Source: an uncultured Ignavibacteriales bacterium (lineage in GTDB: Bacteria; Zixibacteria; MSB-5A5; GN15; FEB-12). Taken from it: a stretch of DNA of 64,000 nt. Shown piece by piece: positions 43,092 through 58,582 of the stretch (its first letter is position 1; each line of letters opens with the position of its first letter). The stretch covers positions 30,338 to 94,337 of the forward strand of contig CAZFGK010000003.1 in assembly GCA_964518635.1 (NCBI GenBank), written 5' to 3'. The notes beneath the pieces were generated by a model, which worked only from the letters and a program-made list of their open reading frames with translations, ran no database searches and was not told where the DNA came from. Position numbers and translations under genes: made by a program.

Positions 43092-43116
43092 TCTTTCTGT
43101 ATCGACGAGTAGCGTG

Positions 43117-43137
43117 TGGAATAATAATGCAACTTTT
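43117..43137 (+). promoter_or_regulatory. Motif pair 1 in the divergent control region: TGGAATAATAAT-g-CAACTTTT
   Basis: The 12-mer recurs exactly, inverted, at 43295-43306. The 8-mer recurs inverted at 43311-43318. Confidence 0.4.
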
Positions 43138-43199
43138 GCGAATGCGAAGAGTTTCGATCAGGAAATGAATATAATTCTGGAGTTTTTTTAATCACACAG

Positions 43200-43229
43200 T
43201 TGAAGTATGCATTTTCTGCTATCTATACT
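43200..43229 (+). promoter_or_regulatory. Candidate sigma70-like promoter TTGAAG-N18-TATACT for the ferredoxin-kor-nuo block
   Basis: Hexamers read by eye in the AT-rich spacer. The promoter consensus of this lineage is unknown. Confidence 0.2.
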
Positions 43230-43294
43230 CTGTGGTAATGATTGGGCAATTAGTGGTAAACAGAGTGAAAGAAATACATACCAATAGATATTCG

Positions 43295-43318
43295 ATTATT
43301 ATTCCATGCGAAAAGTTG
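43295..43318 (+). promoter_or_regulatory. Motif pair 2: ATTATTATTCCA-tgcg-AAAAGTTG (inverted copies of pair 1)
   Basis: Exact reverse complements of the 12-mer and the 8-mer at 43117-43137. Confidence 0.4.
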
Positions 43319-43458
43319 TTTTCATGTGAGTGAAATCAATGGCGTGTCGATGAAAATGTATTATACATAAGGTGTGTGTCAGAACTGACCACGCAGTGAT
43401 CTGATTCGATCTCACTCGCAAGGTGTGAGTGACGAATCGTCAGAAAAGGAGAGAGATC

Positions 43459-43746
43459 ATGGCTTATATCATCACCAGCGACTGTAACCTCTGTGACAAA
43501 TGTGTGGAACCCTGTCCGAATGAAGCGATTTCTGCCGGAGCTGATATTTATGTCATTGATCCGGCGAAATGCACGGAATGTGTTGGTTTCTATGACACGC
43601 CGCAGTGTGCGGATGTTTGTCCGGTAGATAGTTGTATCACCGATCCGGACCGGAAAGAGGCAGAGCCGATTCTCCTGGCACGGGCTAAGATGCTACATCC
43701 GAATAAGAACATCCCGGATAACTATCCTTCACATTTCAGACGCTAA
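43459..43746 (+). CDS. yfhL: YfhL-type 2x[4Fe-4S] ferredoxin
   Basis: Start at ATG 43459 (AAGGAGAG upstream). MAYIITSDCNLCDKCVEPCPNEAIS...IDPAKCTECVGFYDTPQCADVCPV aligns residue for residue with the E. coli YfhL pattern. Confidence 0.85.
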   Translation: MAYIITSDCNLCDKCVEPCPNEAISAGADIYVIDPAKCTECVGFYDTPQCADVCPVDSCITDPDRKEAEPILLARAKMLHPNKNIPDNYPSHFRR

Positions 43747-43758
43747 GGGTGGGAGTGT

Positions 43759-45660
43759 ATGCAATCCTCAAAGGAGACGAACACAACACTTGCCTCGTCG
43801 ATAAAATCTCTGAAGGAACGTCGTCCTCAACCCAGTGAACGTGATATCACGACCATTCGTTTTGCCGGCGACTCCGGAGACGGAATTCAACTGCTCGGTA
43901 CCCGCTTTGCCAATGCTTCGGCAATGTTCGGCGATGATGTGATGACACTCGCTGAGTATCCGGCGGAGATCCGCGCCCCTGCCGGAACTGTCGCCGGTGT
44001 TTCCGGATTTCAGGTCAACATCGGTCCGCAAAACGTTTATACCGCCGGTGATCTTGTTGATGTGCTGGTGGTGATGAACCCCGCCGCACTGCAGGCAAAT
44101 CTGAATACGCTGCGCCCCGGCGGGATGATTATCGCCAACGAAGATGCTTTTACCGAAAAGAATCTGGAAAAGGCCGGATACAGCGAGAATCCACTGAAGA
44201 ACGGCGTTGTATCCGATTTTAAAGTCTATTCGATTCGCATTTCGCATCTCACTGGTGCTGCACTGGAACCGCTCAATCCCCCTCGTACACAGGTCGAACG
44301 ATCAAAGAATTTCTTCGCCCTTGGGCTGGTTTGCTGGTTATTCAGTTTACCACTTGAGAATCCACTCGGTTGGATCAATCGTCATTTCGGAAAAGATGAA
44401 AGTGTGCTGAAAGCGAATTCAACCGCTCTCGTCGCGGGCTACAATTTTGGTGACTCTACTGAGCTCTTTACGACCAGCTACATTGTTCAACCAAAACGAA
44501 GTCGCAAGCCAGGGAGCTATCGCTACTTGAACGGCAATTCAGCTCTTTCGTTAGGACTAATCGCGGCGGCACATCAGTCCGGTCTGCGGCTTTTCCTCGG
44601 CAGCTATCCAATCACACCTGCCTCGGATATTCTGCACGAACTGAGCAAACATAAAGAGTTCCCGATTACTACGTTTCAGGCAGAGGATGAGATTGCGGCA
44701 GTGGGAGCAGCAATTGGGGCATCGTTTGCCGGAGCACTCGGTGTGACTACCACTTCCGGTCCGGGGATGTCTCTTAAGACCGAGTTCATTAATCTCGCTG
44801 TAGCCGCTGAGCTACCCCTTGTGATTATTAATGTACAACGTGGTGGCCCATCGACCGGACTTCCAACCAAAATGGAACAGGCCGATCTCTATCAGGCACT
44901 CTGGTCTCGTCATGGGGAATCTCCGGCGGTGGTACTTGCAGCAAGTTCACCGAAAGATTGCTTTGACACTGCCATTGAGGCAGCGCAAATCGCAATCAAG
45001 TACATGACACCCGTCATCATTCTTAGTGACGGCTACATTGCGAACGGTTCAGAGCCGTGGCGTATTCCGGATATAAGTGAACTACCCCACTTCCCTGCCG
45101 AGTTTCTGGAGACTACCGATCGGCTACAGCCGTATAGCCGAAATCCGATTACTCTGGCACGCCCCTGGATCAAACCCGGTACCCCGGGGATGGAACACCG
45201 TATCGGAGGTCTGGAACGACGTGATCTGACTGGTGAAATTGATCTGACGGCTGAGAACCATGAGAAGATGGTTGCCTTCCGCGAAGCGAAAATCCATCGA
45301 GTCAGCAATAACATCCCACGACTCAAAATTGAAGGGGATCCGAACGCGGAACTGCTCATTATCGGTTGGGGAAGTTCGTACGGCGCAATTACACGTGCGG
45401 TACTGAATCAGAATGCCATCGGTCATCCGGTAGCCTCGATTCATCTGAGACACCTGAATCCATTCCCGAAAGATCTGGAAGCGATTCTGGAGCGATTCCC
45501 GAAGCGAGTCATTGCTGAAAACAATCTCGGACAACTCTGGACGAAGATGCGTGCGGAGTATCTCGTTGAACTCAAGAAGTTCAACAAAGTGAAGGGGACC
45601 CCCTTCAGAATCAGCGAAATCGAAGAAATGATCGAGAAAGAGCTTGGGGTGATATCATGA
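43759..45660 (+). CDS. korA: 2-oxoglutarate:ferredoxin (acceptor) oxidoreductase, alpha subunit (gamma-alpha fusion)
   Basis: 633 aa. N-terminal gamma domain: IRFAGDSGDGIQLLG...EYPAEIRAP. Alpha domain: GNSALSLGLIAAA...YPITPASDILHEL...FQAEDEIAAVGAAIGASFAG. Confidence 0.85.
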   Translation: MQSSKETNTTLASSIKSLKERRPQPSERDITTIRFAGDSGDGIQLLGTRFANASAMFGDDVMTLAEYPAEIRAPAGTVAGVSGFQVNIGPQNVYTAGDLVDVLVVMNPAALQANLNTLRPGGMIIANEDAFTEKNLEKAGYSENPLKNGVVSDFKVYSIRISHLTGAALEPLNPPRTQVERSKNFFALGLVCWLFSLPLENPLGWINRHFGKDESVLKANSTALVAGYNFGDSTELFTTSYIVQPKRSRKPGSYRYLNGNSALSLGLIAAAHQSGLRLFLGSYPITPASDILHELSKHKEFPITTFQAEDEIAAVGAAIGASFAGALGVTTTSGPGMSLKTEFINLAVAAELPLVIINVQRGGPSTGLPTKMEQADLYQALWSRHGESPAVVLAASSPKDCFDTAIEAAQIAIKYMTPVIILSDGYIANGSEPWRIPDISELPHFPAEFLETTDRLQPYSRNPITLARPWIKPGTPGMEHRIGGLERRDLTGEIDLTAENHEKMVAFREAKIHRVSNNIPRLKIEGDPNAELLIIGWGSSYGAITRAVLNQNAIGHPVASIHLRHLNPFPKDLEAILERFPKRVIAENNLGQLWTKMRAEYLVELKKFNKVKGTPFRISEIEEMIEKELGVIS

Positions 45661-46694
45661 ATGTCGTCCTTGAAAGAAAAGACTATCTGAGTGGCACCGA
45701 CCCCCGTTGGTGCCCCGGATGTGGTGATCATGGCGTTTTGAAGAGCTTCACGGCGGCGATGGCACAGATCGGACTACCGACTGAAAAACTTGCAATCATT
45801 TCCGGGATCGGCTGCTCATCACGATTTCCGCACTATGTGCGTGCCTACGGATTCCATGGCATTCATGGACGAGCCCCGGCATTGGCAATGGGCGTGCGCA
45901 TGACTCGTCCAGATCTATCGGTCTGGGTAGTAACCGGCGACGGAGACGGACTCTCAATCGGCGGGAATCATTTCATGCATCTCATGCGGCGCAATCCGAA
46001 TATCAAGATGCTTCTCCTGAACAATCGGATCTACGGACTCACTAAGGGTCAGGTATCGCCGACATCACCGAAGGGACATGTCACGAAATCGACCCCGTAT
46101 GGAGCAGTGGAATCACCCGTGAATCCGGTCAGTCTCGCACTCGCTTGTGGAGCAACCTTTGTCGCCCGTGTCCCTGGAACTGACAATGCGATGACTACTG
46201 ATATGATGGTCGCTGCCTACAAACACAAAGGGGTCGCACTGATCGAAGTTTTGCAGGATTGTGACATCTTCAACGAAGGCATCTGGGCCGAAGTTACGAA
46301 GAAGAGTAACCGCGCAACAAATACCGTCACACTCGTCCACGGCGAGCCACTTCTCTTCGGTGAAAACCGTGAGAAGGGTTTTCGTGTAAAGGATTTCGAT
46401 CTTGAAATAGTCAATGTCAATGATCCCGGAGTCGACAAATCGCAGTTGCTGGTCCATGACATGCATCGCAGCGATGCAACAGTTGCCCAGAAGCTCGCTC
46501 AACTGGAATATCCGAAATTCCCCTACGCTCTTGGCATCTTTCGTCAGGTTGACGCACCTGTCTACGATGAAGAGGTCCATTGGCAAGAGGATCAAGTGGC
46601 GGCCAAAGCGGGACGGACAGATCTGTATGATCTGCTCCATGCCGGTGAAGTCTGGTCGGTCCCGGATGACAATTGGTACGAGTTGCCTGTTTAG
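45657..46694 (+). CDS. korB: 2-oxoglutarate:ferredoxin (acceptor) oxidoreductase, beta (TPP) subunit
   Basis: WCPGCGDHGVL and TGDGDGLSIGGNHFMH. ATGA overlap with korA. Confidence 0.85.
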   Translation: MNVVLERKDYLSGTDPRWCPGCGDHGVLKSFTAAMAQIGLPTEKLAIISGIGCSSRFPHYVRAYGFHGIHGRAPALAMGVRMTRPDLSVWVVTGDGDGLSIGGNHFMHLMRRNPNIKMLLLNNRIYGLTKGQVSPTSPKGHVTKSTPYGAVESPVNPVSLALACGATFVARVPGTDNAMTTDMMVAAYKHKGVALIEVLQDCDIFNEGIWAEVTKKSNRATNTVTLVHGEPLLFGENREKGFRVKDFDLEIVNVNDPGVDKSQLLVHDMHRSDATVAQKLAQLEYPKFPYALGIFRQVDAPVYDEEVHWQEDQVAAKAGRTDLYDLLHAGEVWSVPDDNWYELPV

Positions 46695-46752
46695 CATAAT
46701 CGCGCTGCCCGTACGGACTGACTCAGGAGGGATGAGAAAGTAGACCTACGCT

Positions 46753-47103
46753 ATGGAATTTTTATTCATCATCCTGTTTGCACTGACATCGGTCGCACTG
46801 GTCGGTGGTGGGATTCTTGCCTCCCGACTTCTTTCACCACGTCGACCAAACAGAGTCAAAGGAAACCCGTACGAGTGCGGTGAAGAGACCATTGGTCCTT
46901 CATGGGTGCATTTCAATGTCGGCTATTATCTCTTCGCTCTTCTTTTTCTGATTTTTGAAGTCGAAGCGGCCTTTCTCTTTCCCTGGGCAGTGATCTTCAG
47001 AGAGATCGGACTGGCCGGATTGATCTCCGTCTTCCTCTTCATCTTCATACTATTGCTCGCTTTAATTTATTCCTGGAAGAAGGGGATTCTCGAATGGGTA
47101 TGA
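46753..47103 (+). CDS. nuoA: NADH-quinone oxidoreductase-type Complex I subunit A
   Basis: 116 aa, 3 TM. NPYECGE and [15 protein letters not shown]. Confidence 0.9.
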
Positions 47104-47804
47104 ATGACGACTCCGAACCTGCGGTCGAACGATTTCCGGGAGGATCGTTTGTCATCAGCCGACTTGATCAGGTCATCAATCTGGCCCGATCAAATTCTCT
47201 CTGGCCTCTGACATTCGGCACCAGTTGCTGTGCCATCGAAATGATGATGGCCACTGGCGCATCACGTCACGATATCGCCCGGTTCGGCGCGGAAGTCGCT
47301 CGCCCTTCGCCACGACAGGCAGATCTGCTTATTGTCGCAGGAACCATCGTGAAGAAGATGGCTCCGCGTCTGCGCACATTGTACGAGCAGATGGCCGAAC
47401 CCCGCTATGTGATCGCCACCGGTGCCTGTACCATTTCAGGTGGCCCATTTGTCTATCAGTCATATACGACGGTTCGTGGTGTTGATACGATTATTCCGGT
47501 CGATGTCTACGTACCGGGCTGTCCCCCACGGCCGGAGGCACTCTTCTATGGCATCCTCACGTTGCAAAAGATGATTCGTCAGGGGGAGACCGTGCGACAC
47601 CCCGATATCAGACAGAAACCGGTACTTGCTGCTCTCCCTCCTGATATCTCAATGGAAGATCTAAGTAAGGAGATGGAAGAGCTTCTTCTGGTCGATGCGA
47701 CTTTTGATATCGAAAAGAAACGAAGCTCCCTGCCGTGGCCAAATCCTTCGAATGTCAGCAGCAAGATCGTTGACAAAGATGACACCGAAGAGCAGAGCAG
47801 ATGA
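47094..47804 (+). CDS. nuoB: Complex I subunit B (N2 cluster subunit) with a ~74-aa C-terminal tail
   Basis: [15 protein letters not shown] and [11 protein letters not shown] ligand motifs. The conserved core ends near aa 162; a charged tail runs to aa 236. Confidence 0.9.
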
Positions 47805-48328
47805 GTGATTCGAATGCCACTGCGAGTGATGCGGTCCCCTCAGGCGACGTCGTCTCCCCATTGGTAAGTGCTCTCTGTTCTCGCTTTGCAGGTATCTCCC
47901 CCTACTCTGGAAAATCTGACTATCCTGCAATCTCGATTGATGCATCTTCGCTCCTGACGGTCATGAGCGATTTGAAGTCTAATCCTGAGTTCGACTTCTC
48001 AGTTCTTTTTTCTCACACTGCCGTTGATCGAATAGATAATCAGCAATTTGAATTGCTCTATTTTCTTCATTCGATGAACTACCCGCATCGCTTGCTCGTG
48101 ACAGTGACAATTCCCCGCCTTCTTCCCGTTATACCAACGGTTAGCGGTATCTGGAAAATCGCCGAATGGCAGGAACGGGAAGTCTTCGATCTGTTTGGTA
48201 TAGAGTATGACGGACATCCGGATCTGCGGCGCATCTTCCTCGAAGATGACTGGCAGGGATTTCCGCTCCGCAAAGACTATGTCGACGATCACATGCTCAC
48301 TCGCGAAGCTGAAGGAGAACACTCGTGA
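47801..48328 (+). CDS. nuoC: Complex I subunit C (30 kDa)
   Basis: [29 protein letters not shown] overlap with nuoB. Confidence 0.88.
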
Positions 48329-49488
48329 GCGTGCAGGTTACCACCCTTGCTCAGCGAGTCGCAATCGGCTCGCCGGATCAGGGAGCGCAGGGGACTCAGG
48401 AATACTTCATCAATATGGGGCCGCAGCATCCGGCGACACACGGCGTACTTCGGCTCATGCTTCGGCTTGATGGGGAGACGATCAGGGAGGTCGTTCCGGT
48501 TCTTGGCTATATTCATCGCGGTATTGAAAAGGTAGGGGAGAGTCTGAGCTATCGTCAGTTTGTCTATCTCACTGACCGGATGGATTATTTGTCGGCAATG
48601 ATGAACAACTGGGGAGTCGCGATGGCTGTCGAGCAAGCGACGCAGACTGAACTGAATGATCGCATTCATGCTATTCGCACCCTCATGGCCGAACTTGAGC
48701 GATTGCAAAGTCATCTCCTCTGGTGGGGAGTACTCGGCATGGATCTGGGAGCCTTCACCCCTTTCCTGTATGGCTTTCGTGATCGGGAATTATTGACAGA
48801 TGTCTTTGAAGAGACTGTCGGATGTCGCCTGACGATGAACTATATCCAGCCGGGTGGGGTGATGACCGATCTTCATCCCAACTTTGTTCACCGAGTGAAA
48901 GCAGCTGTCGCGGAGATAAAATCAAAATTATCGGAGTATGACACTCTCCTCTCTGATAATCTCATCTTGCGCGAGCGTACTCGCAACATCGGTATCCTGA
49001 ATGAGTCTGATGCGATTTCACTTGGTGTGACGGGTCCGCCGCTGCGCGCCAGTGGCGTCCCCTATGATCTTCGAAAGTCACATCCGTACGGCGCGTATGA
49101 CAAGGTCTCCTTTCAGGTTCCTATTGGATCGGTCGGAGATTGCTGGGATCGCTATTGGGTGAGAGTAGCTGAGATGCGTCAATCGATCTCCATTGTTGAG
49201 CAGTTGATCGATGATATTCCAGAGGGAAAAACGATGCTGATGAAACCGGCGAAGAAGATTGTCCTTCCGGAGGGAATCTGGAGTAGTCAGCTCGAAACCG
49301 CCCGCGGTATCCTTGGTGTCGTCATCGTTTCAGATGGAAGGTCTGATCATCCCTATCGGATACATCTGCGCAGCCCCAATTTCAATAATCTCTGGGCCAT
49401 CGATTGCATGAGTCGCGGTGGACGAATCGGCGATCTTGTCGCTAATGTGTCATCGCTTGATCTCGTCATACCGGATATCGACAGGTAG
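48325..49488 (+). CDS. nuoD: Complex I subunit D (49 kDa)
   Basis: INMGPQHPATHGVLRL, GYIHRGIEK, and the C-terminus SLDLVIPDIDR. Confidence 0.92.
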   Translation: MSVQVTTLAQRVAIGSPDQGAQGTQEYFINMGPQHPATHGVLRLMLRLDGETIREVVPVLGYIHRGIEKVGESLSYRQFVYLTDRMDYLSAMMNNWGVAMAVEQATQTELNDRIHAIRTLMAELERLQSHLLWWGVLGMDLGAFTPFLYGFRDRELLTDVFEETVGCRLTMNYIQPGGVMTDLHPNFVHRVKAAVAEIKSKLSEYDTLLSDNLILRERTRNIGILNESDAISLGVTGPPLRASGVPYDLRKSHPYGAYDKVSFQVPIGSVGDCWDRYWVRVAEMRQSISIVEQLIDDIPEGKTMLMKPAKKIVLPEGIWSSQLETARGILGVVIVSDGRSDHPYRIHLRSPNFNNLWAIDCMSRGGRIGDLVANVSSLDLVIPDIDR

Positions 49489-49492
49489 CATC

Positions 49493-50599
49493 ATGACCTA
49501 TCCACTATTGCCACATCTCGCCACCACGCTAAGTATCGCCGAAAAGACCGAGCAGACTCTCGCCGCCGAGCCCTGGCTAGCGGCGACCTACATCGCTGCA
49601 TCACTCATCGGCATCATCGCATTCATGAGTCTCATGGGGCTTGGGTTGGTCTATGCCGAACGAAAAGTCGCCGCTCATTTTCAATGTCGGCTCGGTCCGA
49701 TGCGAGTTGGCTGGCATGGAACACTTCAGACCATCGCTGATGCCATCAAGCTCGTCATGAAAGAGGATACGGTTCCCACTGGTGCTGATCGGGCACTCTT
49801 TTTCATCGCGCCGGTCATGAGTATCCTTGCGACGGTTCTTGCCCTCATCGTGATCCCCTTTGCACCGGGAGTGCAGATCATCGATCTGGAAGTGGGCGTA
49901 CTCTACCTCGCTGCGGTCAGCGGATTCGGAGTGCTCGGCATTCTGCTCGGTGGCTGGAGCTCGAATAATAAATGGTCGTTGCTTGGTGCCATGCGTTCCG
50001 GTGCACAGTTTGTCTCGTATGAAATCTCAGTGACGATTTCACTTCTGATCGTGAGTCTTTTTGCTGGCTCGATGCAGCTTTCGGAAATTGTCGCAAGTCA
50101 GGAGTCGGGCTGGTGGATCTGGCGCGGACATCTGCCGGCGATGATCGGCTTTCTTATTCTGCTCATCGCTTCAACGGCAGAAATCAATCGCGCGCCTTTC
50201 GATTTGCCGGAAGCAGAAAGTGAACTGACCGGCGGCTTTCATACCGAGTTTTCCGGAATTCGCTTCGCATTTTTCTTTCTTGCTGAATACATCAACATGT
50301 TCATCACCGCGGCAATCGCTGCGACACTTTTTCTAGGTGGCTGGATGCCCTTGCATATCGGAACATTCGAGACCTTTAATATGGTCATGGATTTCATCCC
50401 GCCGATCATCTGGTTTCTGGGAAAGACTGCTTTTCTGATTTTCGTCATGATGTGGGTACGCTGGACATTCCCGCGGCTCCGAGTCGACCAGCTTATGCGA
50501 CTTGAGTGGAAAGTGCTGGTACCAGTGAGCTTCGCCAATCTCCTGCTCTGCTCGCTCATTATCTTCGCTGGACTCTACTTCTTTCCGGGAGTGAAATAA
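49493..50599 (+). CDS. nuoH: Complex I subunit H
   Basis: Start at ATG 49493, 4 nt after the nuoD stop; the ORF track extension to 49418 overlaps nuoD. AERKVAAHFQCRLGPMRVGWHGTLQTIADAIKL. Confidence 0.92.
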   Translation: MTYPLLPHLATTLSIAEKTEQTLAAEPWLAATYIAASLIGIIAFMSLMGLGLVYAERKVAAHFQCRLGPMRVGWHGTLQTIADAIKLVMKEDTVPTGADRALFFIAPVMSILATVLALIVIPFAPGVQIIDLEVGVLYLAAVSGFGVLGILLGGWSSNNKWSLLGAMRSGAQFVSYEISVTISLLIVSLFAGSMQLSEIVASQESGWWIWRGHLPAMIGFLILLIASTAEINRAPFDLPEAESELTGGFHTEFSGIRFAFFFLAEYINMFITAAIAATLFLGGWMPLHIGTFETFNMVMDFIPPIIWFLGKTAFLIFVMMWVRWTFPRLRVDQLMRLEWKVLVPVSFANLLLCSLIIFAGLYFFPGVK

Positions 50600-51297
50600 T
50601 GCAGAAGAAACTGCCAGAAGGCGTTAGCGAACAAAGAACAGTTGGGGGGAAGTCCGTTGATGTCCTCATCGCCCCTCGTGACTTCGATACCAATAATGAA
50701 GGTTTTGTGGAACGTATGGCGAACGCCTTTTCATCGCTGGCAAGCGGCATGAAACTTACTCTCGGCTATCTGCTTCGTCCATCGACCGTCGTCACGCAGC
50801 AATATCCGGAGAACAAATCAACGCTGAAGATGCAGGATCGATTTCGCGGCCAGCTTCGCCTCACAAAGGATGAGAACGACATTATCCGCTGCAACGGCTG
50901 TAACTTCTGCGGTCTGGCTTGCCCGAACAAGAGCATTGTAATCAAGGACAAGAAGAATTCGATCTCTGGTACTTCCGAGATTGATCAGTTTGTCTGGCGA
51001 CTCGACACCTGCACTTTCTGCAACGCCTGTATCCAGGCCTGCCCACATGATGCCCTCGAATGGTCATCCGATTTCGAAGCTGCCGTGCTCGACCGTCGAC
51101 TGCTCGTCTATGGGCTGAATACCTACTCCGGTCCACCTTCTGCTGTGATCAAACGTGCTGAGAAAAAACAGGAGAATGTCGAGGAGTTGAAAGCGACGGC
51201 TGAAACTCGTGATCGCTACGAAGGACAAGTACCGATGGCCGGGGCTGATCTTCCCGGAATGCCCGGCCTACCCACTCGCAAGACGGAAGAATCATAG
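50599..51297 (+). CDS. nuoI: Complex I subunit I (2x[4Fe-4S]) with N- and C-terminal extensions
   Basis: Start at ATG 50599 (TAATG overlap with nuoH). YPENK...RFRGQLRL, CNGCNFCGLACP and CTFCNACIQACP. About 35 extra residues at the N-terminus and about 60 at the C-terminus. Confidence 0.9.
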   Translation: MQKKLPEGVSEQRTVGGKSVDVLIAPRDFDTNNEGFVERMANAFSSLASGMKLTLGYLLRPSTVVTQQYPENKSTLKMQDRFRGQLRLTKDENDIIRCNGCNFCGLACPNKSIVIKDKKNSISGTSEIDQFVWRLDTCTFCNACIQACPHDALEWSSDFEAAVLDRRLLVYGLNTYSGPPSAVIKRAEKKQENVEELKATAETRDRYEGQVPMAGADLPGMPGLPTRKTEES

Positions 51298-51854
51298 TGC
51301 AAGATTTTGCTGGTGATCTCGGATTCTATCTCTTCGCGATTGTTTCTATCATTGGCGCGCTGATCGCAGTCCGGTCCACGCGCATTCTTCGCGCTGCGAT
51401 TGGGCTGGCGACCACTCTTGTCGCGGCTGCTGCATTGTATGCGATTCTTGGAAGTGGCTTTCTGGCGGCGATTCAGATTCTGATCTATGTCGGCGGGATC
51501 GTAGTCCTGATAGTCTTTGCGGTCATGCTGACCAGTTCGAATGAGATTCTTGAGCCACAACCAACTCTTCAAAGGCAATTTCTCGCAGTTGCTTCTGGCT
51601 TGCTCTTCATGTTCGCCTCAATCACCGTACTTTCATCATCTCAATTTTCCTTCGCCACGAAGCAGCAAGCAGAAAGTTCTGATGCAGCAGCATTGGGACG
51701 ATTGATGCTCGACGGAGGGGGATCTGGCTATCTCATCGCTTTTGAAGCGATTTCACTCCTGCTGCTTGCTGCAGTCATCGGGGCGATTGTCGTCGCTAGA
51801 TCCGAGAAGCCAGCAGACGGCCAAGTTACTGAGAATGGTGAGGTCTCGTTATGA
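51297..51854 (+). CDS. nuoJ: Complex I subunit J
   Basis: 185 aa, GTG start. The TM pattern and operon position fit NuoJ (AIQILIYVGGIVVLIVFAVML). Confidence 0.85.
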   Translation: MQDFAGDLGFYLFAIVSIIGALIAVRSTRILRAAIGLATTLVAAAALYAILGSGFLAAIQILIYVGGIVVLIVFAVMLTSSNEILEPQPTLQRQFLAVASGLLFMFASITVLSSSQFSFATKQQAESSDAAALGRLMLDGGGSGYLIAFEAISLLLLAAVIGAIVVARSEKPADGQVTENGEVSL

Positions 51855-52159
51855 TCACTCCCATTCATTGGCTGACATTGTCAGCAATTCTGTTTGGCAT
51901 CGGAGTCTATGGCGTGCTTTCCCGTCGAAGTGCGCTTGGTGTTCTCATTGCTGTCGAACTTATGCTCAATGCAGTCGCGCTGAATTTTGCAATTTTCAAT
52001 AAGTCTCTGATGACTCAGGTGCCGGAGGGGAACCTGATGGTCATCTTTATCATCGCCGTAGCAGCGGCCGAAGCAGTCGTTGCCATGGCGATTTTTGTCT
52101 CCATCTATCGAACGAGAAAGAGTATCGATGTCACCCTCTATGAGAGTATGAAGGGATAA
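51851..52159 (+). CDS. nuoK: Complex I subunit K
   Basis: 102 aa. GVYGVLSRRSALGVLIAVELMLNAV. Confidence 0.9.
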   Translation: MITPIHWLTLSAILFGIGVYGVLSRRSALGVLIAVELMLNAVALNFAIFNKSLMTQVPEGNLMVIFIIAVAAAEAVVAMAIFVSIYRTRKSIDVTLYESMKG

Positions 52160-52169
52160 TCGCGAGATA

Positions 52170-54095
52170 ATGTTCTCCCTCTCCTGGTTGATTCCTCTGC
52201 TCCCTTTTCTCTCGTTTCTTCTGCTCGCACTTTTCGTGGCTCCGCGATCTCGACAGGCGGCCGCGATCATAGGTACGATCTCGGTCGCAACTGCTGCTCT
52301 TTTTTCTGCTCTCCTCTGTTGGGAATACTACCAACTCTATCCCATGGGCGCAGAACATCCGAGTATTGTCGCCTGGTCATTTGAATGGCTGCGTTACGGA
52401 CCGTTCCTCTCGGTAACTGCAGGAGTACTTGTCGATCCGGCTTCACTTCTGCTCATGCTCGTCGTTACAACCGTCAGTACAGCAGTCCATGTGTACTCGA
52501 TCGGCTACATGGCAGATGATCAGGGATCAGGAAGATACTTTACGTACATGAGTCTATTCACTTTCAGCATGCTTGGATTAGTCATCGCGCCGAATATTCT
52601 GCAGACCTATTTCTTCTGGGAATTGGTTGGAGTAAGTTCATTCCTGCTCATTGGTTTCTACTATCAAAAAGAGAGTGCAGTCGCAGCGGCGAAGAAGGCA
52701 TTCATTGTCACACGCTTTGCCGATCTTTTCTTTCTGATCGGCGTTCTTCTGCTCGGCTATTTCGGATACCAACAACTTGCACAAGGAGTGTCGCCGGACT
52801 CTTCTGTACAGGCCTTTGACTTTGCATTTCTCAATTCGAGTGCCTCTACCGCCTCACTCGAACAAATCGGAATACTCACCACTGCCGCAATTTTGATTTT
52901 TATTGGAGCCGCCGGAAAGTCCGCAATGTTTCCGTTGCATGTCTGGCTTCCTGATGCGATGGAAGGACCAACTCCGGTCTCGGCACTCATTCATGCCGCA
53001 ACGATGGTAGTCGCCGGTGTCTATCTTGTCGCACGATTGTTTCCGCTCTTTGCTGCATCCGGTACAGCATTGACCGTCGTCGCAATCGTTGGCGCATTCA
53101 CCTGTCTCTTCGCCGCCGTTATTGCCTGCACGCAGGATGATATCAAGCGAGTCCTCGCCTTTTCGACGCTGAGCCAGCTTGGCTACATGATGCTCGCCCT
53201 TGGTGTCGCGACATACGAAAGTGCGGCTGGATACACTGCTTCTCTATTTCATCTCTTTACCCACGCGATGTTCAAAGCCCTCCTCTTTCTCGGAGCTGGG
53301 GCGGTAATTCATGCGGTGCATTCAAACAATCCCTGGGGAATGGGGGGACTAGCGAAGAAAATGCCGTACACCCATCTGACCTTTTTGATCGCCACCCTCG
53401 CCATTGCCGGTGTGCCACCACTTTCAGGATTTTTCTCGAAGGACATGATACTTGCATCGGCACTGGAAAATGGGCACCCCGTTCTCTTTGGCGTCGGTCT
53501 ACTGGTCGCTGGGCTGACTGCATTTTACATGATGCGACTCTATCTGCTGACATTTGCCGGCGAAAGCAGATCGGAAGCTGCGTCATATGCCCGCGAAGCT
53601 CCGCTGGTTATGCTCATCCCTCTTCTGATTCTTGCTCTTCTCTCTGCGATCACCGGACTTCTTCCCATTGATCAGTTTGTCTGGATTGGGAAAGAGCACG
53701 CCTCACATCACGGCTGGCTGGTCCCGATACTCGCGGTATCAGCGGGGGCATTCGGAATCGCCGTCGCATGGTTTGTCTATGGCGGTAATCTGAATCGCTC
53801 TGAGCAGGTAGTCAAATCACTTGGCCCACTCTATCCAGTGATCGAGAACAAATTCTACATCGATGAAATCTACCTCTATATCACCCGACGGGTCATTTTC
53901 CCCTTCGTTAGTGCACCAATTGCGTGGTTTGACCGGCACATCGTAGATGGTGCAGTGAATCTCACCGGGCGCATCACGCAGATGGCTGGAACCGTTCTCT
54001 CGCATCTTCAGACCGGTCAAATTCAGACCTACGGACTCTGGCTGGTCAATGGCGCGGTCATTGTTGCAATGCTCCTGTGGGGATTGAGCAGGTAA
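52170..54095 (+). CDS. nuoL: Complex I subunit L (antiporter-like)
   Basis: 641 aa. FFWELVGVSSFLLIGFYY, GKSAMFPLHVWLPDAMEGPTPVSALIHAATMV, and a C-terminal lateral helix region. Confidence 0.92.
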   Translation: MFSLSWLIPLLPFLSFLLLALFVAPRSRQAAAIIGTISVATAALFSALLCWEYYQLYPMGAEHPSIVAWSFEWLRYGPFLSVTAGVLVDPASLLLMLVVTTVSTAVHVYSIGYMADDQGSGRYFTYMSLFTFSMLGLVIAPNILQTYFFWELVGVSSFLLIGFYYQKESAVAAAKKAFIVTRFADLFFLIGVLLLGYFGYQQLAQGVSPDSSVQAFDFAFLNSSASTASLEQIGILTTAAILIFIGAAGKSAMFPLHVWLPDAMEGPTPVSALIHAATMVVAGVYLVARLFPLFAASGTALTVVAIVGAFTCLFAAVIACTQDDIKRVLAFSTLSQLGYMMLALGVATYESAAGYTASLFHLFTHAMFKALLFLGAGAVIHAVHSNNPWGMGGLAKKMPYTHLTFLIATLAIAGVPPLSGFFSKDMILASALENGHPVLFGVGLLVAGLTAFYMMRLYLLTFAGESRSEAASYAREAPLVMLIPLLILALLSAITGLLPIDQFVWIGKEHASHHGWLVPILAVSAGAFGIAVAWFVYGGNLNRSEQVVKSLGPLYPVIENKFYIDEIYLYITRRVIFPFVSAPIAWFDRHIVDGAVNLTGRITQMAGTVLSHLQTGQIQTYGLWLVNGAVIVAMLLWGLSR

Positions 54096-54098
54096 CTA

Positions 54099-55631
54099 AT
54101 GGGACTTGTCAGCTGGCTGATTCTCATTCCCTTTTTAACGGCTCTTGCAATTCTGCTGACACCGAATGAGCGTCGTACCTCATTTCGTTGGATTACACTC
54201 GGAGGAACAGCTCTTCACCTGATTCTCACCGGACTCCTTTGCTATCGCTACTGGTCTACGGCAGTAGACGGACTTGCAGAATCAACCACGGGAGTACTTT
54301 CCGATCTTCGCTTTGTCGAGCGCATTCCCTGGTTTGACTCTCTCGGAATTACCTATCTCGTCGGAGTGGACGGAATGTCGGTCTTCATGGTACTATTGAC
54401 TTCTATAGTAATTTTCGCAGGAGTGTTGGCAAGCTGGGAAGTCATGCATCGTGGGAAAGAGTTCTTTGCTTGGCTCATGATTCTGGTCACCGGTGTGTTT
54501 GGTGTGTTCATGAGTTTCGATCTCTTTCTCTTCTTCATTTTCTACGAGCTTGCAGTCCTCCCGATGTATCTGTTGATCGGCATCTGGGGGACCGGACCAA
54601 AAGAATACGCTGCGATGAAGCTGACCATGATGCTCATGGCGAGCTCGGCTCTTATTCTCGTCGGCATTCTCGCTCTTTATTACGGCTCAGGATTGCAAAC
54701 ATTTGATCTGACTCAACTCGCCACCGCGACATTTCCGACTGCATTTCAGCATTGGGTCTTCCCTGTGATTTTCATCGGCTTTGGTGTGATAGGCGCACTT
54801 TATCCCTTTCATACCTGGTCACCGGATGGGCATGCCTCTGCGCCGACCGCGGTCTCGATGCTCCATGCCGGAGTGCTTATGAAACTGGGAGGGTACGGTG
54901 CATTGCGTATTGGTGTCTACCTTCTTCCCGAGGGAGCACAACACTGGGCACTTTTTTTCATGGTTCTCACCACCGTCAATATCCTGTATGGCTCATTCGC
55001 CGCGATCAAGCAGACCGATCTGAAATATTTCACGGCCTATTCATCGGTCAGTCATTGCGGCTTTGTGCTATTCGGTGTCCTCTCACTGAACGGGATGGGT
55101 TTTCATGGCGCGGTGCTGCAGATGTTCAGTCACGGAATCATGACTGCCTTGTTCTTCGGACTCATAGGAATGGTTTATGGTCGCACGCATACGCGAGTCA
55201 TTCCTGAAATGGGTGGGCTTGGCAGTAAAATGCCCTGGCTCGCAACCTGTTTCTTCATCGGAGGGCTTGCCTCACTCGGTCTCCCCGGTCTGTTTGGATT
55301 TGTTGCCGAGTCACATGTGTTTCTTGGAGGGATTTTTGGACAGCCGGGTGCCGATGCGACATTCTCGCAGGTACTCACTCTCCTCGCTACTGCTTCGATA
55401 GTCGTGACAGCAGTGTATGTGCTCCGTGGCCTTACCCGCGTTTTCTATGGTCCGATTGATGAAAAACATTTTGGTTCACTGACAGATGCAACACTGACCG
55501 AAAAACTCAGTTCAGGGATATTGGTTACCGTGCTGGTCATTGGCGGACTCTTTCCCTCGTACTTTGTGAATCTGATCCATTCCTCTCTCGTACCGCTGGT
55601 CAATCGTGTCGCACAGACAGGGGGGCAGTAA
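54099..55631 (+). CDS. nuoM: Complex I subunit M (antiporter-like)
   Basis: 510 aa. FFIFYELAVLPMYLLIGIWG and HTWSPDGHASAPTAVSMLHAGVLMKLGGYG. Confidence 0.92.
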   Translation: MGLVSWLILIPFLTALAILLTPNERRTSFRWITLGGTALHLILTGLLCYRYWSTAVDGLAESTTGVLSDLRFVERIPWFDSLGITYLVGVDGMSVFMVLLTSIVIFAGVLASWEVMHRGKEFFAWLMILVTGVFGVFMSFDLFLFFIFYELAVLPMYLLIGIWGTGPKEYAAMKLTMMLMASSALILVGILALYYGSGLQTFDLTQLATATFPTAFQHWVFPVIFIGFGVIGALYPFHTWSPDGHASAPTAVSMLHAGVLMKLGGYGALRIGVYLLPEGAQHWALFFMVLTTVNILYGSFAAIKQTDLKYFTAYSSVSHCGFVLFGVLSLNGMGFHGAVLQMFSHGIMTALFFGLIGMVYGRTHTRVIPEMGGLGSKMPWLATCFFIGGLASLGLPGLFGFVAESHVFLGGIFGQPGADATFSQVLTLLATASIVVTAVYVLRGLTRVFYGPIDEKHFGSLTDATLTEKLSSGILVTVLVIGGLFPSYFVNLIHSSLVPLVNRVAQTGGQ

Positions 55632-55647
55632 GATCGACCTCCACTTG

Positions 55648-57051
55648 ATGCTTCCCGAGATCATCGTTGTAATTACAGCGATAGCAACCCTCCTGGTCGA
55701 TCTCTTCCTCTCGAAAGATCGGAAGCAGATGTTGTATCCGATGGTCGTGCTCTTCTTAACAGCAGCGATTGTCGCTTTGATCACGATGCTTCCGGAACAA
55801 TCAACCGCATTTGGTGGGAGATTTCTGGTCAGCCCACTCACGACGTGGTTCAAGATTCTTTTTCTCTCAGGAGGTTCGTTTACGGTGCTGCTGGCATGGG
55901 GATGTAAGAATCATGAACGAATCGCATCCCCCGGCGAGTTTCTGACGATCCTCTTGTTCACTCAAGTTGGCATGATGCTTCTCATCTCAGCAACCGAACT
56001 GATCACACTCTATCTTGGACTTGAACTCTCTACGCTTCCCTTGTTTGCGCTTGTCGCATGGAAAAAGCGAAATCTGCAATCAGGAGAGGCGGGGCTGAAG
56101 TACATCGTCTATGGTGCAATGGCATCCGGGATCATTCTCTACGGTTTAAGTCTTCTCTATGGAACGACCGGTCAGATGTCGCTAAGCATGATTCGCGAAA
56201 CCGTAGTCAATTCTCCCATCGTCATGTTTGCTCTTGGGCTACTCGTCGCAGGGATTGGATTCAAGCTGACGCTGGCCCCTTTTCATTTCTGGGCAGCTGA
56301 TGTCTATCAAGGGGCACCGACAGTAGTGACAACCTATCTGTCAGTTTCATCGAAAGCTGCCGGGCTGGCTTTCATGTTTCAGATATTTGCATCAATCTTC
56401 GCGTTCCAACTCCAGGACATGCAGTGGCTGATTGCGATTATCGCAACGGCGACCATGACGCTTGGGAATCTGGTCGCAATTGTCCAACGTGACATCAAAC
56501 GATTCATGGCCTTCAGTTCGATTTCTCAGGCAGGAAATCTTATTCTGGGATTCCTCGGCCCATTTCCTGAAGGGGGGGGCGGAATGATCTTTTATCTCTT
56601 TGTCTTCATATTCACCAATATTGCAGTCTTCGGAGTAATCGTTCTGTATTCAGATGTCACCGGAAGAGCACAGATCGAGGACTATCGCGGGCTTTCACAA
56701 TCCAACCCGATCATTGCATTAGTCATCACCCTTGGGCTTTTCGGGTTGGCGGGAATTCCTCCTCTCGCCGGTTTTGTCGGTAAGTTCTTTCTGTTCAGCG
56801 TCGCGGCACAAGCCGGGATGTACTGGCTGGTTGCGGTCGCTGCTTTAAATGCAACAGTTTCTCTGTACTATTATCTTCGAGTTGTTCGCGCTATGTACAT
56901 CGAACCACCCGAATCTGACTGGACACCGATTTCGGCTCCACTACAAATCAAAGCCGCGCTTCTGCTGGCGAGTATCGGAACCGTATTACTTGGGGTGATA
57001 CCCTTTTTCTATGAATCGATACGCGCGGCATCGATTTCCTGGCTCAAGTAG
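55648..57051 (+). CDS. nuoN: Complex I subunit N (antiporter-like)
   Basis: The likely start is MLPEIIVVITAIATLLVDLF (ATG 55648); the ORF track GTG at 55606 overlaps nuoM. FKLTLAPFHFWAADVYQGAPTVVTTYLS. Confidence 0.9.
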   Translation: MLPEIIVVITAIATLLVDLFLSKDRKQMLYPMVVLFLTAAIVALITMLPEQSTAFGGRFLVSPLTTWFKILFLSGGSFTVLLAWGCKNHERIASPGEFLTILLFTQVGMMLLISATELITLYLGLELSTLPLFALVAWKKRNLQSGEAGLKYIVYGAMASGIILYGLSLLYGTTGQMSLSMIRETVVNSPIVMFALGLLVAGIGFKLTLAPFHFWAADVYQGAPTVVTTYLSVSSKAAGLAFMFQIFASIFAFQLQDMQWLIAIIATATMTLGNLVAIVQRDIKRFMAFSSISQAGNLILGFLGPFPEGGGGMIFYLFVFIFTNIAVFGVIVLYSDVTGRAQIEDYRGLSQSNPIIALVITLGLFGLAGIPPLAGFVGKFFLFSVAAQAGMYWLVAVAALNATVSLYYYLRVVRAMYIEPPESDWTPISAPLQIKAALLLASIGTVLLGVIPFFYESIRAASISWLK

Positions 57052-57145: not shown

Positions 57146-58435
57146 ATGACGACTATCGCCCAAATCGCAGCAAAAGTATCTCTTGGCCTTCATGACGAGT
57201 TTTCCCCGCTACGTGCGGTCATGCTTCATCGTCCCGGCGCAGAATGGGATATGATTCGTGTCTCGGAGGGATTACCAAAAGAGTATCTGGTCGAGGATGT
57301 CGTCTATCGCCCTCAAGCCGCTCATGATCATGGGGAATTCGCCGCCTGTCTGGCGCACGTCGCAGGTTCGGCCCATGTCCATGAATTCGAAACACTGCTG
57401 GCGGAGATTCTTGCCACCCGCGATGTCCGCAGTGATCTGATCGGGGCGGTCTGCGCCACTGAACGACTCGGCTTTGCAACTCATGATTTCCTGATGTCGC
57501 CGTCGATCTCTACACAGAATCTGGCGAATCTGCTGATCACCGGGGCGATTCATCCCGAGGACCCCGGTCATAGCGACCACCGAGTATTTTTCCGACCACT
57601 TCCCAACCTGATGTTCACCCGTGATATCGGTATTGTTTTCGGTACTCGGTTGATTCTTTCACAGCAATCGAAACCGGCTCGCATGCGTGAGGGGCTTCTT
57701 GCCACGTACGTCTTTCGCTTTCATCCACTCTTCAGTTCCCTCTCGTTGATTGATCTTCGTGATGATCGAATCTCGGATGCTACAGAAAGCGCGACCCTTG
57801 AAGGAGGGGATGTGCTCGTCTTTGACGCACGGACACTGGTCATCGGACAAAGTGAACGGTCAAGTATGACTGCCATTCGTCATCTTGCCCTTCGGTTACT
57901 TCGAGAGAAGGCCATCGACAGAGTGATTGCGGTAAAACTGCCGAAAGAGCGTTCGACGATGCATCTTGATACGGTCTTTACGATCATCGGCCCCGGGCAT
58001 TGCGTCTATTTCCCCCCACTGTTCGATCCAAGGAGCAACGGATGCGCTGAATGTGACCTGATCGAATTGTCCGGCGATACACTCGTAACCTCAACGACAC
58101 GTGATGGGCTCTTCGTCCTGCTTGAGCGTTGCGGGATCACCTTTGATGTCCGTATCCCCTGTGGCGGCGAAATTCCTCTCTTTCAAATGCGCGAGCAGTG
58201 GACCGACGGCGCAAATCTTTTTGCGGCTCGCCCCCATTGTGCATTTGTATATGAGCGGAATGTCGAGACATTACGTGCCGCAAAAAAGGCCGGATATCGA
58301 ATACTCACCCCAAAAGAATTTCTCGATTCTGACCCATCGAAAAATGAATGGACATGGATAACTCTGAACGGCTCAGAACTTTCCCGCGGTCGCGGCGGTG
58401 CACGCTGCATGACGATGCCCCTGTCACGCGGGTAA
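57146..58435 (+). CDS. arcA: Arginine deiminase
   Basis: LRAVMLHRPG, NLMFTRD, LEGGDVLVF, TMHLDTVFT and the catalytic-Cys motif GGARCMTMPLSR at the C-terminus. Confidence 0.8.
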   Translation: MTTIAQIAAKVSLGLHDEFSPLRAVMLHRPGAEWDMIRVSEGLPKEYLVEDVVYRPQAAHDHGEFAACLAHVAGSAHVHEFETLLAEILATRDVRSDLIGAVCATERLGFATHDFLMSPSISTQNLANLLITGAIHPEDPGHSDHRVFFRPLPNLMFTRDIGIVFGTRLILSQQSKPARMREGLLATYVFRFHPLFSSLSLIDLRDDRISDATESATLEGGDVLVFDARTLVIGQSERSSMTAIRHLALRLLREKAIDRVIAVKLPKERSTMHLDTVFTIIGPGHCVYFPPLFDPRSNGCAECDLIELSGDTLVTSTTRDGLFVLLERCGITFDVRIPCGGEIPLFQMREQWTDGANLFAARPHCAFVYERNVETLRAAKKAGYRILTPKEFLDSDPSKNEWTWITLNGSELSRGRGGARCMTMPLSRG

Positions 58436-58440
58436 TCTAT

Positions 58441-58469
58441 TCGTCGACTCATAAGTAGACGATTTTTTT
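58441..58469 (+). terminator. Possible intrinsic terminator after arcA
   Basis: tcgtc...gacga forms a short stem with a 12-nt loop, followed by a T7 run. Confidence 0.4.
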
Positions 58470-58582
58470 GTCCAGATTATTCACGTATTCTCATCAGAAA
58501 TTTTCCGCAATCATTCTTGCAACATGACCAGATTCATTGTTGATTTGATTCAAACTCATGTTCTGAAACGGATGTATGTGCT

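Follow-up and report, generated by a model that had tools for sequence, protein, structure and literature searches.

For the Zixibacteria representative RBG-1, Castelle et al. (2013) proposed that an 11-subunit Complex I re-oxidizes the ferredoxin of pyruvate:ferredoxin oxidoreductase (PFOR) and 2-oxoglutarate:ferredoxin oxidoreductase (OGOR) and thereby builds a proton-motive force, a proposal they called speculative (PMC3903129). The gene block described here, fdx-korA-korB-nuoABCDHIJKLMN, is located at positions 43459-57051 on the plus strand of a 64,000-nucleotide stretch of DNA (hereafter the window) from an uncultured bacterium of the same phylum (assembly GCA_964518635.1, contig CAZFGK010000003.1). 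It combines the genes of a small ferredoxin, a two-subunit 2-oxoacid:ferredoxin oxidoreductase (KorAB), and a Complex I without the NADH module NuoEFG. By analogy with described systems, it probably encodes a ferredoxin-dependent, proton-pumping entry route into respiration that leads from a 2-oxoacid via ferredoxin to quinone.

The likeness to RBG-1 extends from the phylum (NuoD is most similar to that of a Zixibacteriota metagenome-assembled genome [MAG], 76% identity) to the 11-subunit complex without NADH module and to the presence of PFOR and OGOR in the cluster. In RBG-1, the alternative Complex I, NfnAB, Mvh/Hdr, a PFOR, and an OGOR are encoded in one large cluster, and a second type-1 NADH dehydrogenase is present beside the 11-subunit complex, which makes two in all (PMC3903129). 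Neither the fdx-korAB-nuoA junction nor its conservation in other phyla is described in that study (PMC3903129). Unlike in the RBG-1 cluster, NfnAB and Mvh/Hdr are not encoded in this window.

In Campylobacter, nuoG is retained, and the places of nuoE and nuoF between nuoD and nuoH are taken by two unrelated genes. In the window, by contrast, nuoD and nuoH are separated by only 4 nt, and the complex is not of the Campylobacter type. The two systems nevertheless resemble each other in their overall design, because in Campylobacter jejuni, a 2-oxoglutarate:acceptor oxidoreductase (OOR) delivers electrons via a small soluble carrier to a Complex I that is unable to use NADH (Weerakoon & Olson 2008, as cited in PMC7002350 and PMC4453560). 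Whereas the Campylobacter carrier is a flavodoxin and its OOR a four-subunit enzyme encoded outside the nuo operon, the carrier encoded here is an Alvin-type ferredoxin, and the two-subunit KorAB is encoded beside nuo. The same combination of a two-subunit KorAB with an Alvin-type ferredoxin has been described for Thauera aromatica (Dorner & Boll 2002, as cited in PMC9973337), whose ferredoxin structure (1RGV) is among the best matches of the window ferredoxin. The acceptor in T. aromatica, however, is a soluble benzoyl-CoA reductase, whereas the candidate acceptor in the window is a membrane-bound, Complex I-like pump.

A Complex I core without NuoEFG is shared also with cyanobacterial and chloroplast NDH-1 and with archaeal Fpo, in which electrons are expected to enter via the NuoI-homologous subunit. 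Ferredoxin is the accepted donor of NDH-1. Reduced ferredoxin has been cited as a donor for archaeal complexes (PMC4453560). Unlike NDH-1, the window proteins stay far below the equivalog cut-offs for NdhH (310 vs. 583) and ndhI (43 vs. 302), and there are no NdhS/V/O-like genes in the cluster; extra open reading frames (ORFs) are absent because all junctions are ≤58 nt. The same is true for FpoD (302.9 vs. 600), FpoI (55.6 vs. 180), and FpoC (79.9 vs. 220), and FpoF/FpoO-like genes are likewise absent from the cluster. The core is of the bacterial Nuo type and not a member of the NDH-1, Campylobacter-type, or Fpo classes, although the complex may work like one of them despite this non-membership.

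The identical gene set, nuoABCDHIJKLMN, occurs in the 11-subunit NUO of Bacteroides, Chlorobi, Ignavibacteria, and Desulfitobacterium, for which the literature either names no donor or presumes that ferredoxin fills this role (PMC7002350, PMC3362086, PMC11238625). The NUO of Bacteroides fragilis does not oxidize NADH and has an "unknown electron donor" (PMC7002350). The idea of a ferredoxin-fed complex is routine for Chlorobi and Ignavibacteria (PMC3362086, PMC6338057); for Desulfitobacterium, proteomics has made PFOR and ferredoxin the leading candidates (PMC11238625). An earlier attempt to find one donor protein shared by complexes of this kind was unsuccessful (PMC11238625). In contrast to Ignavibacterium album, where the KFOR genes (IALB_1501-1502) are located away from nuo (IALB_1622-1632), the candidate donor is encoded here in the same block, and unlike the candidates of Desulfitobacterium hafniense, it rests on gene linkage rather than on proteomic co-expression (PMC11238625). 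A korAB-nuo operon, a korB-nuoA junction, or its conservation across phyla was not found in the literature searched, whose coverage was incomplete.

Gene content and cofactor sites of the block

The ORF listing and searches against Pfam and NCBIfam identified the following features in the block and in the divergently oriented genes beside it (coordinates in the window, strand, product, evidence):

39518-41137, minus: split PFOR, second half, 539 aa; delta-like 2x[4Fe-4S] domain and beta thiamine pyrophosphate (TPP)-binding domain (Pfam 2x Fer4 and TPP_enzyme_C; C-terminal part of TIGR02176)
41124-43091, minus: split PFOR, first half, 655 aa; alpha (domains I and II) and gamma (domain III) parts, divergent from fdx (Pfam POR_N, PFOR_II, and POR; TIGR02176 positions 1-612)
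43092-43458, no strand: divergent intergenic region between PFOR and fdx, 367 bp (sequence)
43459-43746, plus: fdx, YfhL/Alvin-type 2[4Fe-4S] ferredoxin, 95 aa (NF033683, 99.7 bits, cut-off 86)
43759-45660, plus: korA, 2-oxoacid:ferredoxin oxidoreductase alpha subunit, 633 aa (POR, POR_N, and PFOR_II; TIGR03710, 628.6 bits, cut-off 482.75)
45657-46694, plus: korB, beta subunit, 345 aa (Pfam TPP_enzyme_C)
46695-46752, plus: korB-nuoA spacer, 58 nt (sequence; GGAGG upstream of the nuoA ATG)
46753-47103, plus: nuoA (Pfam Oxidored_q4, E 1.6e-36)
47094-47804, plus: nuoB, 236 aa (NF005012, 234 bits, cut-off 116)
47801-48328, plus: nuoC (Pfam Complex1_30kDa; TIGR01961, 123.5 bits, cut-off 122.45)
48325-49488, plus: nuoD, 387 aa, GTG start (NF004739, 425.9 bits, cut-off 360)
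49493-50599, plus: nuoH (Pfam NADHdh, E 1.3e-116)
50599-51297, plus: nuoI, 232 aa (Pfam Fer4_7; NCBIfam NuoI models)
51297-51854, plus: nuoJ (Pfam Oxidored_q3)
51851-52159, plus: nuoK (Pfam Oxidored_q2)
52170-54095, plus: nuoL (Pfam Proton_antipo_N and Proton_antipo_M)
54099-55631, plus: nuoM (Pfam Proton_antipo_M)
55648-57051, plus: nuoN (Pfam Proton_antipo_M)

Gene identities, cofactor motifs, gene order, and tight spacing can be read directly from the block. No junction between fdx and nuoN exceeds 58 nt (fdx-korA, +12; korA-korB, -4; korB-nuoA, +58; nuoA-B, -10; B-C, -4; C-D, -4; D-H, +4; H-I, -1; I-J, -1; J-K, -4; K-L, +10; L-M, +3; M-N, +16 or -26 nt). The most likely start of nuoI is the ATG at 50599, which overlaps the nuoH stop by one base, rather than the mechanically called GTG at 50506; likewise, nuoN most likely starts with the ATG at 55648 rather than with the mechanical GTG at 55606. 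The initial annotation of the window had placed the same genes on the plus strand, including a YfhL-type ferredoxin, and had noted the short or overlapping junctions and the divergent split PFOR next door; the ORFs, the Pfam, NCBIfam (TIGR02176 in the case of PFOR), and PDB matches, and the reading of the sequence agree with it in all these points.

All eleven nuo genes are present and co-linear in the order A, B, C, D, H, I, J, K, L, M, N, each with a Pfam match. Since only 4 nt separate the nuoD stop (49488) from the nuoH ATG (49493), nuoEFG cannot occupy their usual position, and no NuoE, NuoF, or NuoG Pfam domains were detected in the ORFs of the 64-kb window (at least 80 aa across positions 38000-60000, at least 150 aa below, and at least 100 aa above that range), as had been claimed for both the D-H junction and the window. 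NuoB has the tandem cysteines of the N2 site (SCCAIE, GACT, and GCPP), and NuoI carries two CxxCxxCxxxCP motifs, CNGCNFCGLACP and CTFCNACIQACP. NuoD possesses the motifs QHPATHG and DRMDYL and a C-terminal PDIDR but lacks the CxxC motifs of NiFe hydrogenases, and is therefore of the quinone reductase type and not of the hydrogenase type. The key residues of the Q-module are known from complex I of Thermus thermophilus. By gene set, gene order, motifs, and the absence of EFG from the operon, the block belongs to the 11-subunit Nuo class, with NuoI, by analogy, as the expected point of electron entry.

The fdx product, whose ATG is preceded by AAAAGGAGAGAG, belongs to the YfhL ferredoxin family; it passes the equivalog model and contains both cluster motifs, CxxCxxCxxxCP (CNLCDKCVEPCP) and CxxCx8CxxxCP (CTECVGFYDTPQCADVCP), the second with an eight-residue insertion, followed by a C-terminal tail. 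Its best matches in PDB (3EUN/1BLU, 1RGV, 2FGO, and 2ZVS; E 1e-19 to 4e-22) are the ferredoxins of Allochromatium vinosum, Thauera aromatica, and Pseudomonas aeruginosa and YfhL of Escherichia coli, and by analogy we propose that it is an electron carrier.

KorAB belongs to the two-subunit OAFO/KorAB class; its alpha subunit passes the curated cut-off of TIGR03710, and its beta subunit falls marginally below that of TIGR02177. The domain order of KorA is POR, POR_N, PFOR_II, which places the fused gamma domain at the N-terminus, and a YPITP motif is located at residue 283. KorB possesses the TPP/Mg motif (GDGD...NN) and four cysteines (Cys 19, 22, 53, and 202) for a single [4Fe-4S] cluster; a delta/ferredoxin domain was not detected (no Fer4 match in Pfam). 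The best solved structure for KorA is the OGOR of Magnetococcus (6N2N_A, E 1.6e-69), and KorB matches the second chain of the same structure (6N2N_B, E 4.4e-58). For both subunits, 6N2N ranks ahead of the Sulfolobus 2-oxoacid:ferredoxin oxidoreductase (OFOR) structures, which are known in the literature for broad specificity. Close homologs of KorB carry the JGI name 2-oxoglutarate ferredoxin oxidoreductase subunit beta. Because the closest solved structure is that of an OGOR, 2-oxoglutarate is the most likely substrate of KorAB. The initial designation of the enzyme as a 2-oxoglutarate oxidoreductase thus holds at the level of a 2-oxoacid:acceptor oxidoreductase (NCBIfam), whereas its specificity for 2-oxoglutarate leans indirectly on 6N2N and on the names given to homologs.

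In line with the initial annotation, the 58-nt korB-nuoA spacer contains no terminator-like hairpin; its predicted fold is less stable than that of shuffled sequences (z = +1.44). A single 9/12 sigma-70-like match at 46673-46700 is at chance frequency, and the promoter consensus may not be that of the host phylum; since the counts of the terminator and promoter scans were at shuffle level, the scans are informative only for the absence of a hairpin from the spacer. In the proposed model, the genes from fdx to nuoN would be co-transcribed. The 367-bp region between PFOR and fdx presumably holds the promoters of both transcripts; promoter-like matches in this region were at chance level, and no Rfam element was found. 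A stem-loop before fdx (approx. 43403-43438) was considered as a regulatory element but dropped, because its folding in the window is not significant (z = -1.29) and Rfam gave no match. The fdx leaders of Zixibacteria (the window and L001-L004; see below) have a stem-loop 10-40 nt before the ribosome-binding site, which is not conserved in sequence and whose folding energies are not significant against shuffles (z = -1.29 to +0.90).

Conservation and rearrangement of the donor genes

Using NuoD as query, 80 related loci (numbered from L001) with 10-kb flanks were retrieved, and the window proteins were mapped on them by tblastn, which left 67 evaluable loci. Phylum names are those of the record labels; synteny counts are based on tblastn because a simple ORF caller mis-calls high-GC loci via antisense ORFs. 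The nearest NuoD homologs are from Candidatus Zixiibacteriota MAGs (70-76% identity among the one-genome-per-species GTDB contigs), followed by those from MAGs labeled Bdellovibrionota, Myxococcales, and Planctomycetota (60-68%), and then by Bacteroidota and Ignavibacteria (57-62%). In all 80 loci, nuoD adjoins nuoH, which identifies them as a coherent 11-subunit clade. In 30 of the 67 evaluable loci, korAB is located directly upstream of nuoA (<400 nt) on the same strand, with the following distribution:

Zixibacteriota: 4/4
Bdellovibrionota/Oligoflexia: 8/9
Myxococcales: 7/7
Bacteroidota: 11/15
Planctomycetota: 0/14
PVC: 0/4
Hydrogenedentes: 0/2
Ignavibacteria: 0/8, four with korAB convergent just after nuoN
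Delta-proteobacterium label: 0/1
Unclassified: 0/3

The stop codon of korB and the start codon of nuoA are ≤20 nt apart in 20 of the 30 positive loci, typically 2-14 nt, the spacing found in most relatives among Bacteroidota and Bdellovibrionota. The arrangement is more than a product of chance, as its recurrence in relatives of several phyla shows. Synteny restricted to this genome would have spoken against the initial annotation; instead, it occurs in four differently labeled lineages, and the ferredoxin and PFOR genes are linked to nuo in rearranged positions. In the reciprocal test, which started from protein homologs of KorB and their encoding contigs, homologs with at least 55% identity (L081-L084) were nuo-linked, whereas those of Acidobacteriota and Actinomycetota with 52-54% identity (L085-L087) were not, suggesting that the linkage to nuo is specific and not a general property of korAB. 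In one of these contigs, a Zixibacteria MAG (GCA_964464605.1; L082:11070-12466), the PFOR/fdx-korAB-nuoA arrangement stops inside nuoB (116 aa) and is followed by an acetate kinase gene on the opposite strand, which is either a misassembly or a decayed operon.

Linkage of ferredoxin and PFOR genes to nuo is observed across lineages as well. Ferredoxin homologs at nuo loci share 52-81% identity; the gene precedes korA in Zixibacteria, L042, L083, and L089, follows nuoN at a distance of 28-83 nt in L009, L010, L012, L014, L023, and L030, and in L027 lies directly before nuoA in the absence of kor. In seven of the nine evaluable kor-nuo loci of Bacteroidota, a small ferredoxin (of two different sequence types) is encoded divergently from korA. 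The second half of the split PFOR is kept beside fdx-korAB in L001-L004, L081, and L082. In L015, L025, and L038, homologs of the split PFOR (60-62% identity) are encoded 3-114 nt behind nuoN in the same orientation, and in L044, a Planctomycetaceae MAG, the gene of a single-chain PFOR stops 98 nt short of nuoA. The retention of korAB, fdx, and PFOR with the same pump in different orders is a classic signature of functional coupling, and shared regulation by itself accounts for it less easily.

The nearest ferredoxin relatives outside Zixibacteria (64-67% identity) are also encoded in fdx-korAB cassettes. In two of them (L088:1-8167 and L091:1-6236), the gene order is Ald_Xan_dh, FAD_binding_5, HGD-D, BcrAD_BadFG, fdx, korA, korB; fdx-korAB is thus located beside BcrAD/HGD-D-type and molybdo-hydroxylase genes, whereas it stands alone in L090. 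To judge from these gene families, this is a Thauera-like context for reductases of aromatic or 2-hydroxyacyl-CoA compounds. According to PMC9973337, KorAB of T. aromatica supplies the ferredoxin that feeds benzoyl-CoA reductase. Because the two contexts mirror that of T. aromatica, fdx-korAB is best seen as a portable module that generates low-potential electrons, and by analogy, the enzyme encoded beside it is likely to be the electron sink, which here would be the 11-subunit complex.

Lineages without kor were inspected for a common alternative donor upstream of nuoA, but the genes at this position are mostly unrelated (FtsZ, T9SS cargo, kinases), except in Pirellulales. Members of this group (Rhodopirellula, Stieleria) encode a 476-aa GltD/NfnB-like protein (Fer4_20 and Pyr_redox_2) directly upstream of nuoA on the same strand (L029:6556-7986; also in L028, L033, and L035), which may represent a lineage-specific, NAD(P)H-linked input for the 11-subunit clade.

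NuoB has a C-terminal extension of approx. 65 aa in the window and of approx. 40-65 aa in the sub-clade of Zixibacteria, Bdellovibrionota, Planctomycetota, and PVC (L001-L054). NuoI of the same sub-clade is extended at both termini (approx. 50 aa at the N-terminus and approx. 60 aa at the C-terminus). The extensions are conserved, because the tblastn alignments run through them, but they are absent in Bacteroidota and Ignavibacteria (NuoI of 159-164 aa). Operons of the latter two groups (L062-L078) contain an ORF of approx. 106-126 aa on the same strand, 3-41 nt after nuoN (e.g., L066:18442-18789, L065:18409-18744, and L070:18386-18739), with the approximate consensus GKH..KEI.G.RC.VVE...ER..FLK.LLE.NG.EVK...GVTDI.FNPV.AVY.R.L.T..G..V. 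This ORF, which has neither a Pfam match nor a cysteine cluster and is absent from the window, could encode an accessory subunit. Both the extensions and this product are placed where binding of an N-module or donor would be expected; however, they do not discriminate between the models discussed below, because they are present with or without kor.

Electron flow and competing explanations

In the proposed route, for which described systems provide the analogy at every electron-transfer step, KorAB would oxidize a 2-oxoacid (most likely 2-oxoglutarate) to acyl-CoA and CO2. The enzyme, which has one [4Fe-4S] cluster and lacks a ferredoxin domain of its own, would reduce the co-encoded low-potential, Alvin/YfhL-type 2[4Fe-4S] ferredoxin, as KorAB of T. 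aromatica does with its own ferredoxin. The divergently encoded split PFOR probably reduces the same ferredoxin with electrons from pyruvate. The ferredoxin would then donate to the clusters of NuoI, in analogy to cyanobacterial NDH-1, ferredoxin-dependent Fpo, and the OOR-flavodoxin-Nuo route of Campylobacter, and the electrons would pass via N2 to a membrane quinone, coupled to proton pumping by the 11-subunit complex. Conserved linkage supports, but does not prove, that ferredoxin fuels such complexes.

Several observations weigh against this reading. KorB scores marginally below the cut-off of TIGR02177 (252.9 vs. 261.9), although its motifs are intact, and the NCBIfam grade for KorAB specifies no more than a generic "2-oxoacid". 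The korB-nuoA spacer is the longest junction in Zixibacteria (58 nt here and 20-229 nt in L001-L004), and internal or separate promoters are therefore possible; the initial view of the block as one unit is strengthened by the cross-lineage synteny where function is concerned but overstated if it is taken to mean a single transcript. In 37 of the 67 evaluable 11-subunit operons, kor is missing upstream (Planctomycetota, PVC, Hydrogenedentes, and most Ignavibacteria), which means that KorAB is not a universal partner. Homologs of the cyanobacterial ferredoxin-docking subunits were not seen in the cluster, and a second, NuoEFG-containing complex may be encoded elsewhere in the genome, as in RBG-1. 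Moreover, linkage in an operon can reflect co-regulation without direct electron transfer, as illustrated by the operon sdhCDAB-sucABCD of E. coli, in which the genes of a respiratory complex are joined to those of 2-oxoglutarate dehydrogenase.

The possibility that kor, fdx, and nuo are neighbors only because they belong to a respiratory or TCA (tricarboxylic acid) cycle regulon, with the complex served by another donor (a flavodoxin, a hydrogenase module, or NuoEFG from another locus) and the ferredoxin itself serving other acceptors, is unlikely but has several points in its favor. In RBG-1, ferredoxin has other sinks such as NfnAB, and there are two NADH dehydrogenases of type 1 (PMC3903129); more than half of the related operons lack kor, and the YfhL family is widespread in many contexts. 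The GltD/NfnB-like flavoprotein of Pirellulales, an NAD(P)H-binding iron-sulfur protein encoded before the operon, suggests that donors are lineage-specific, although it is itself an enzyme type able to interact with ferredoxin. Membership in a regulon, however, does not predict that korAB, fdx, and PFOR are independently kept with nuo in varied orders across phyla. We consider it improbable that KorAB, perhaps together with the split PFOR, docks directly to the peripheral arm as a substitute N-module, with the ferredoxin as a bound wire or dispensable. An equally doubtful extension of this idea is that docking takes place on the NuoB and NuoI extensions at the NuoEFG site and gives rise to a 13-14-subunit 2-oxoacid:quinone oxidoreductase that pumps protons. 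In favor of docking, the korB-nuoA distance of 2-14 nt in most loci of Bacteroidota and Bdellovibrionota would permit translational coupling, and KorAB has no ferredoxin domain and carries one [4Fe-4S] cluster near its surface. Furthermore, the extensions of NuoB and NuoI are conserved in their sub-clade, and some kor-nuo loci have no ferredoxin gene in the stretch fetched. Yet most kor-nuo clusters keep a ferredoxin gene in or beside them, and in L027 it is the ferredoxin that accompanies nuo in the absence of kor. The extensions are found also in planctomycetotal operons without kor, the same fdx-korAB cassette serves soluble reductases elsewhere, and the nuo-linked KorB are no closer to the window KorB than the unlinked KorB of other phyla.

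Gene linkage suits both directions of electron flow equally. The forward direction, from 2-oxoacid to quinone, is favored, because Alvin-type ferredoxins have very low potentials and because many carriers of kor-nuo are labeled as members of heterotrophic lineages. The same conclusion is drawn from RBG-1, which has an oxidative TCA cycle with OGOR but no ATP-citrate lyase, and neither Rnf nor H2-evolving hydrogenases as a means of re-oxidizing ferredoxin (PMC3903129). In the opposite case, proton-motive force and quinol would drive the reduction of ferredoxin, and KorAB and PFOR would act as carboxylases, either for the anaplerotic synthesis of 2-oxoglutarate and pyruvate or in a reductive TCA cycle. 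KorAB-type enzymes are reversible and serve as 2-oxoglutarate synthases in several organisms; the closest structure, 6N2N, comes from an organism with a reverse TCA cycle (PMC11304471), and several papers have suggested that relatives form 2-oxoglutarate by carboxylating succinyl-CoA (PMC6338057). In addition, many kor-nuo carriers are labeled as members of aerobic lineages (Bacteroidota and Bdellovibrionota) and may lack other sources of low-potential electrons. Reverse operation nonetheless appears quite unlikely, since carbon-fixation genes are absent from the window, and the reduction of a ferredoxin with the very low potential of the Alvin type from menaquinol would cost more than approx. 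4 H+ provide. Also in RBG-1, neither ATP-citrate lyase nor another autotrophic pathway is present (PMC3903129).

Flanking genes and significance of the linkage

The region downstream of nuoN (57146-59875, plus strand) contains genes of the arginine-deiminase and acyl-CoA:acetate CoA-transferase families, both below the NCBIfam cut-offs. They were rejected as core parts of the system because they are absent after nuoN in the retrieved stretches of L001, L003, and L004; the sequence of L002 ends within the nuo operon and has no downstream genes to compare. A homolog of the CoA-transferase gene is located directly upstream of korA in L015, and its product could handle succinyl-CoA made by KorAB. 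On the far side of the split PFOR, approx. 3.4 kb past its 3' end, the window encodes a membrane polyferredoxin of the NapH/MauN family (35080-36138, plus strand; Fer4_5 and 2x Fer4, below NCBIfam cut-offs). Further features of the window are a tmRNA gene (21472-21831, plus strand; Rfam RF00023, 194.7 bits), a tyrosine recombinase/integrase gene (3527-4471) beside a tRNA gene (4568-4640; both within 3527-4640, minus strand), which may mark the edge of an integrated element, and a type II restriction-modification pair (60625-62651, minus strand) that consists of a TdeIII-family endonuclease (60625-61473) and an N6/N4 DNA methylase (61458-62651).

The observations of the initial annotation were confirmed, and its interpretation is partly supported. 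The novelty that it had attributed to the evidence for the donor was overstated, because the same proposal and the clustering of the genes had already been presented by Castelle et al. 2013 (PMC3903129). A ferredoxin-fueled 11-subunit complex was proposed for this phylum in 2013; what is new, judging from the literature searched, is the tight korB-nuoA junction across phyla. The value of the finding is tempered by the age of the hypothesis, which was put forward for this phylum more than ten years ago, and nothing in the block would surprise a specialist.

The donor of the widespread 11-subunit Complex I without NuoEFG, however, is still described as an open question, and the conserved operon link turns it into a concrete three-component system for reconstitution, consisting of KorAB, ferredoxin, and the 11-subunit Nuo complex. 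Lineages suited to such a test are the Bacteroidota and Bdellovibrionota with korB-nuoA junctions of 2-14 nt. If KorAB were docked to the complex, a decarboxylation of the TCA cycle would be wired directly into a respiratory pump. If instead the ferredoxin-dependent route favored here is true, these organisms would conserve markedly more energy from the oxidation of 2-oxoglutarate in the TCA cycle than they could by way of NADH, because the electrons would enter the pump at the potential of ferredoxin.

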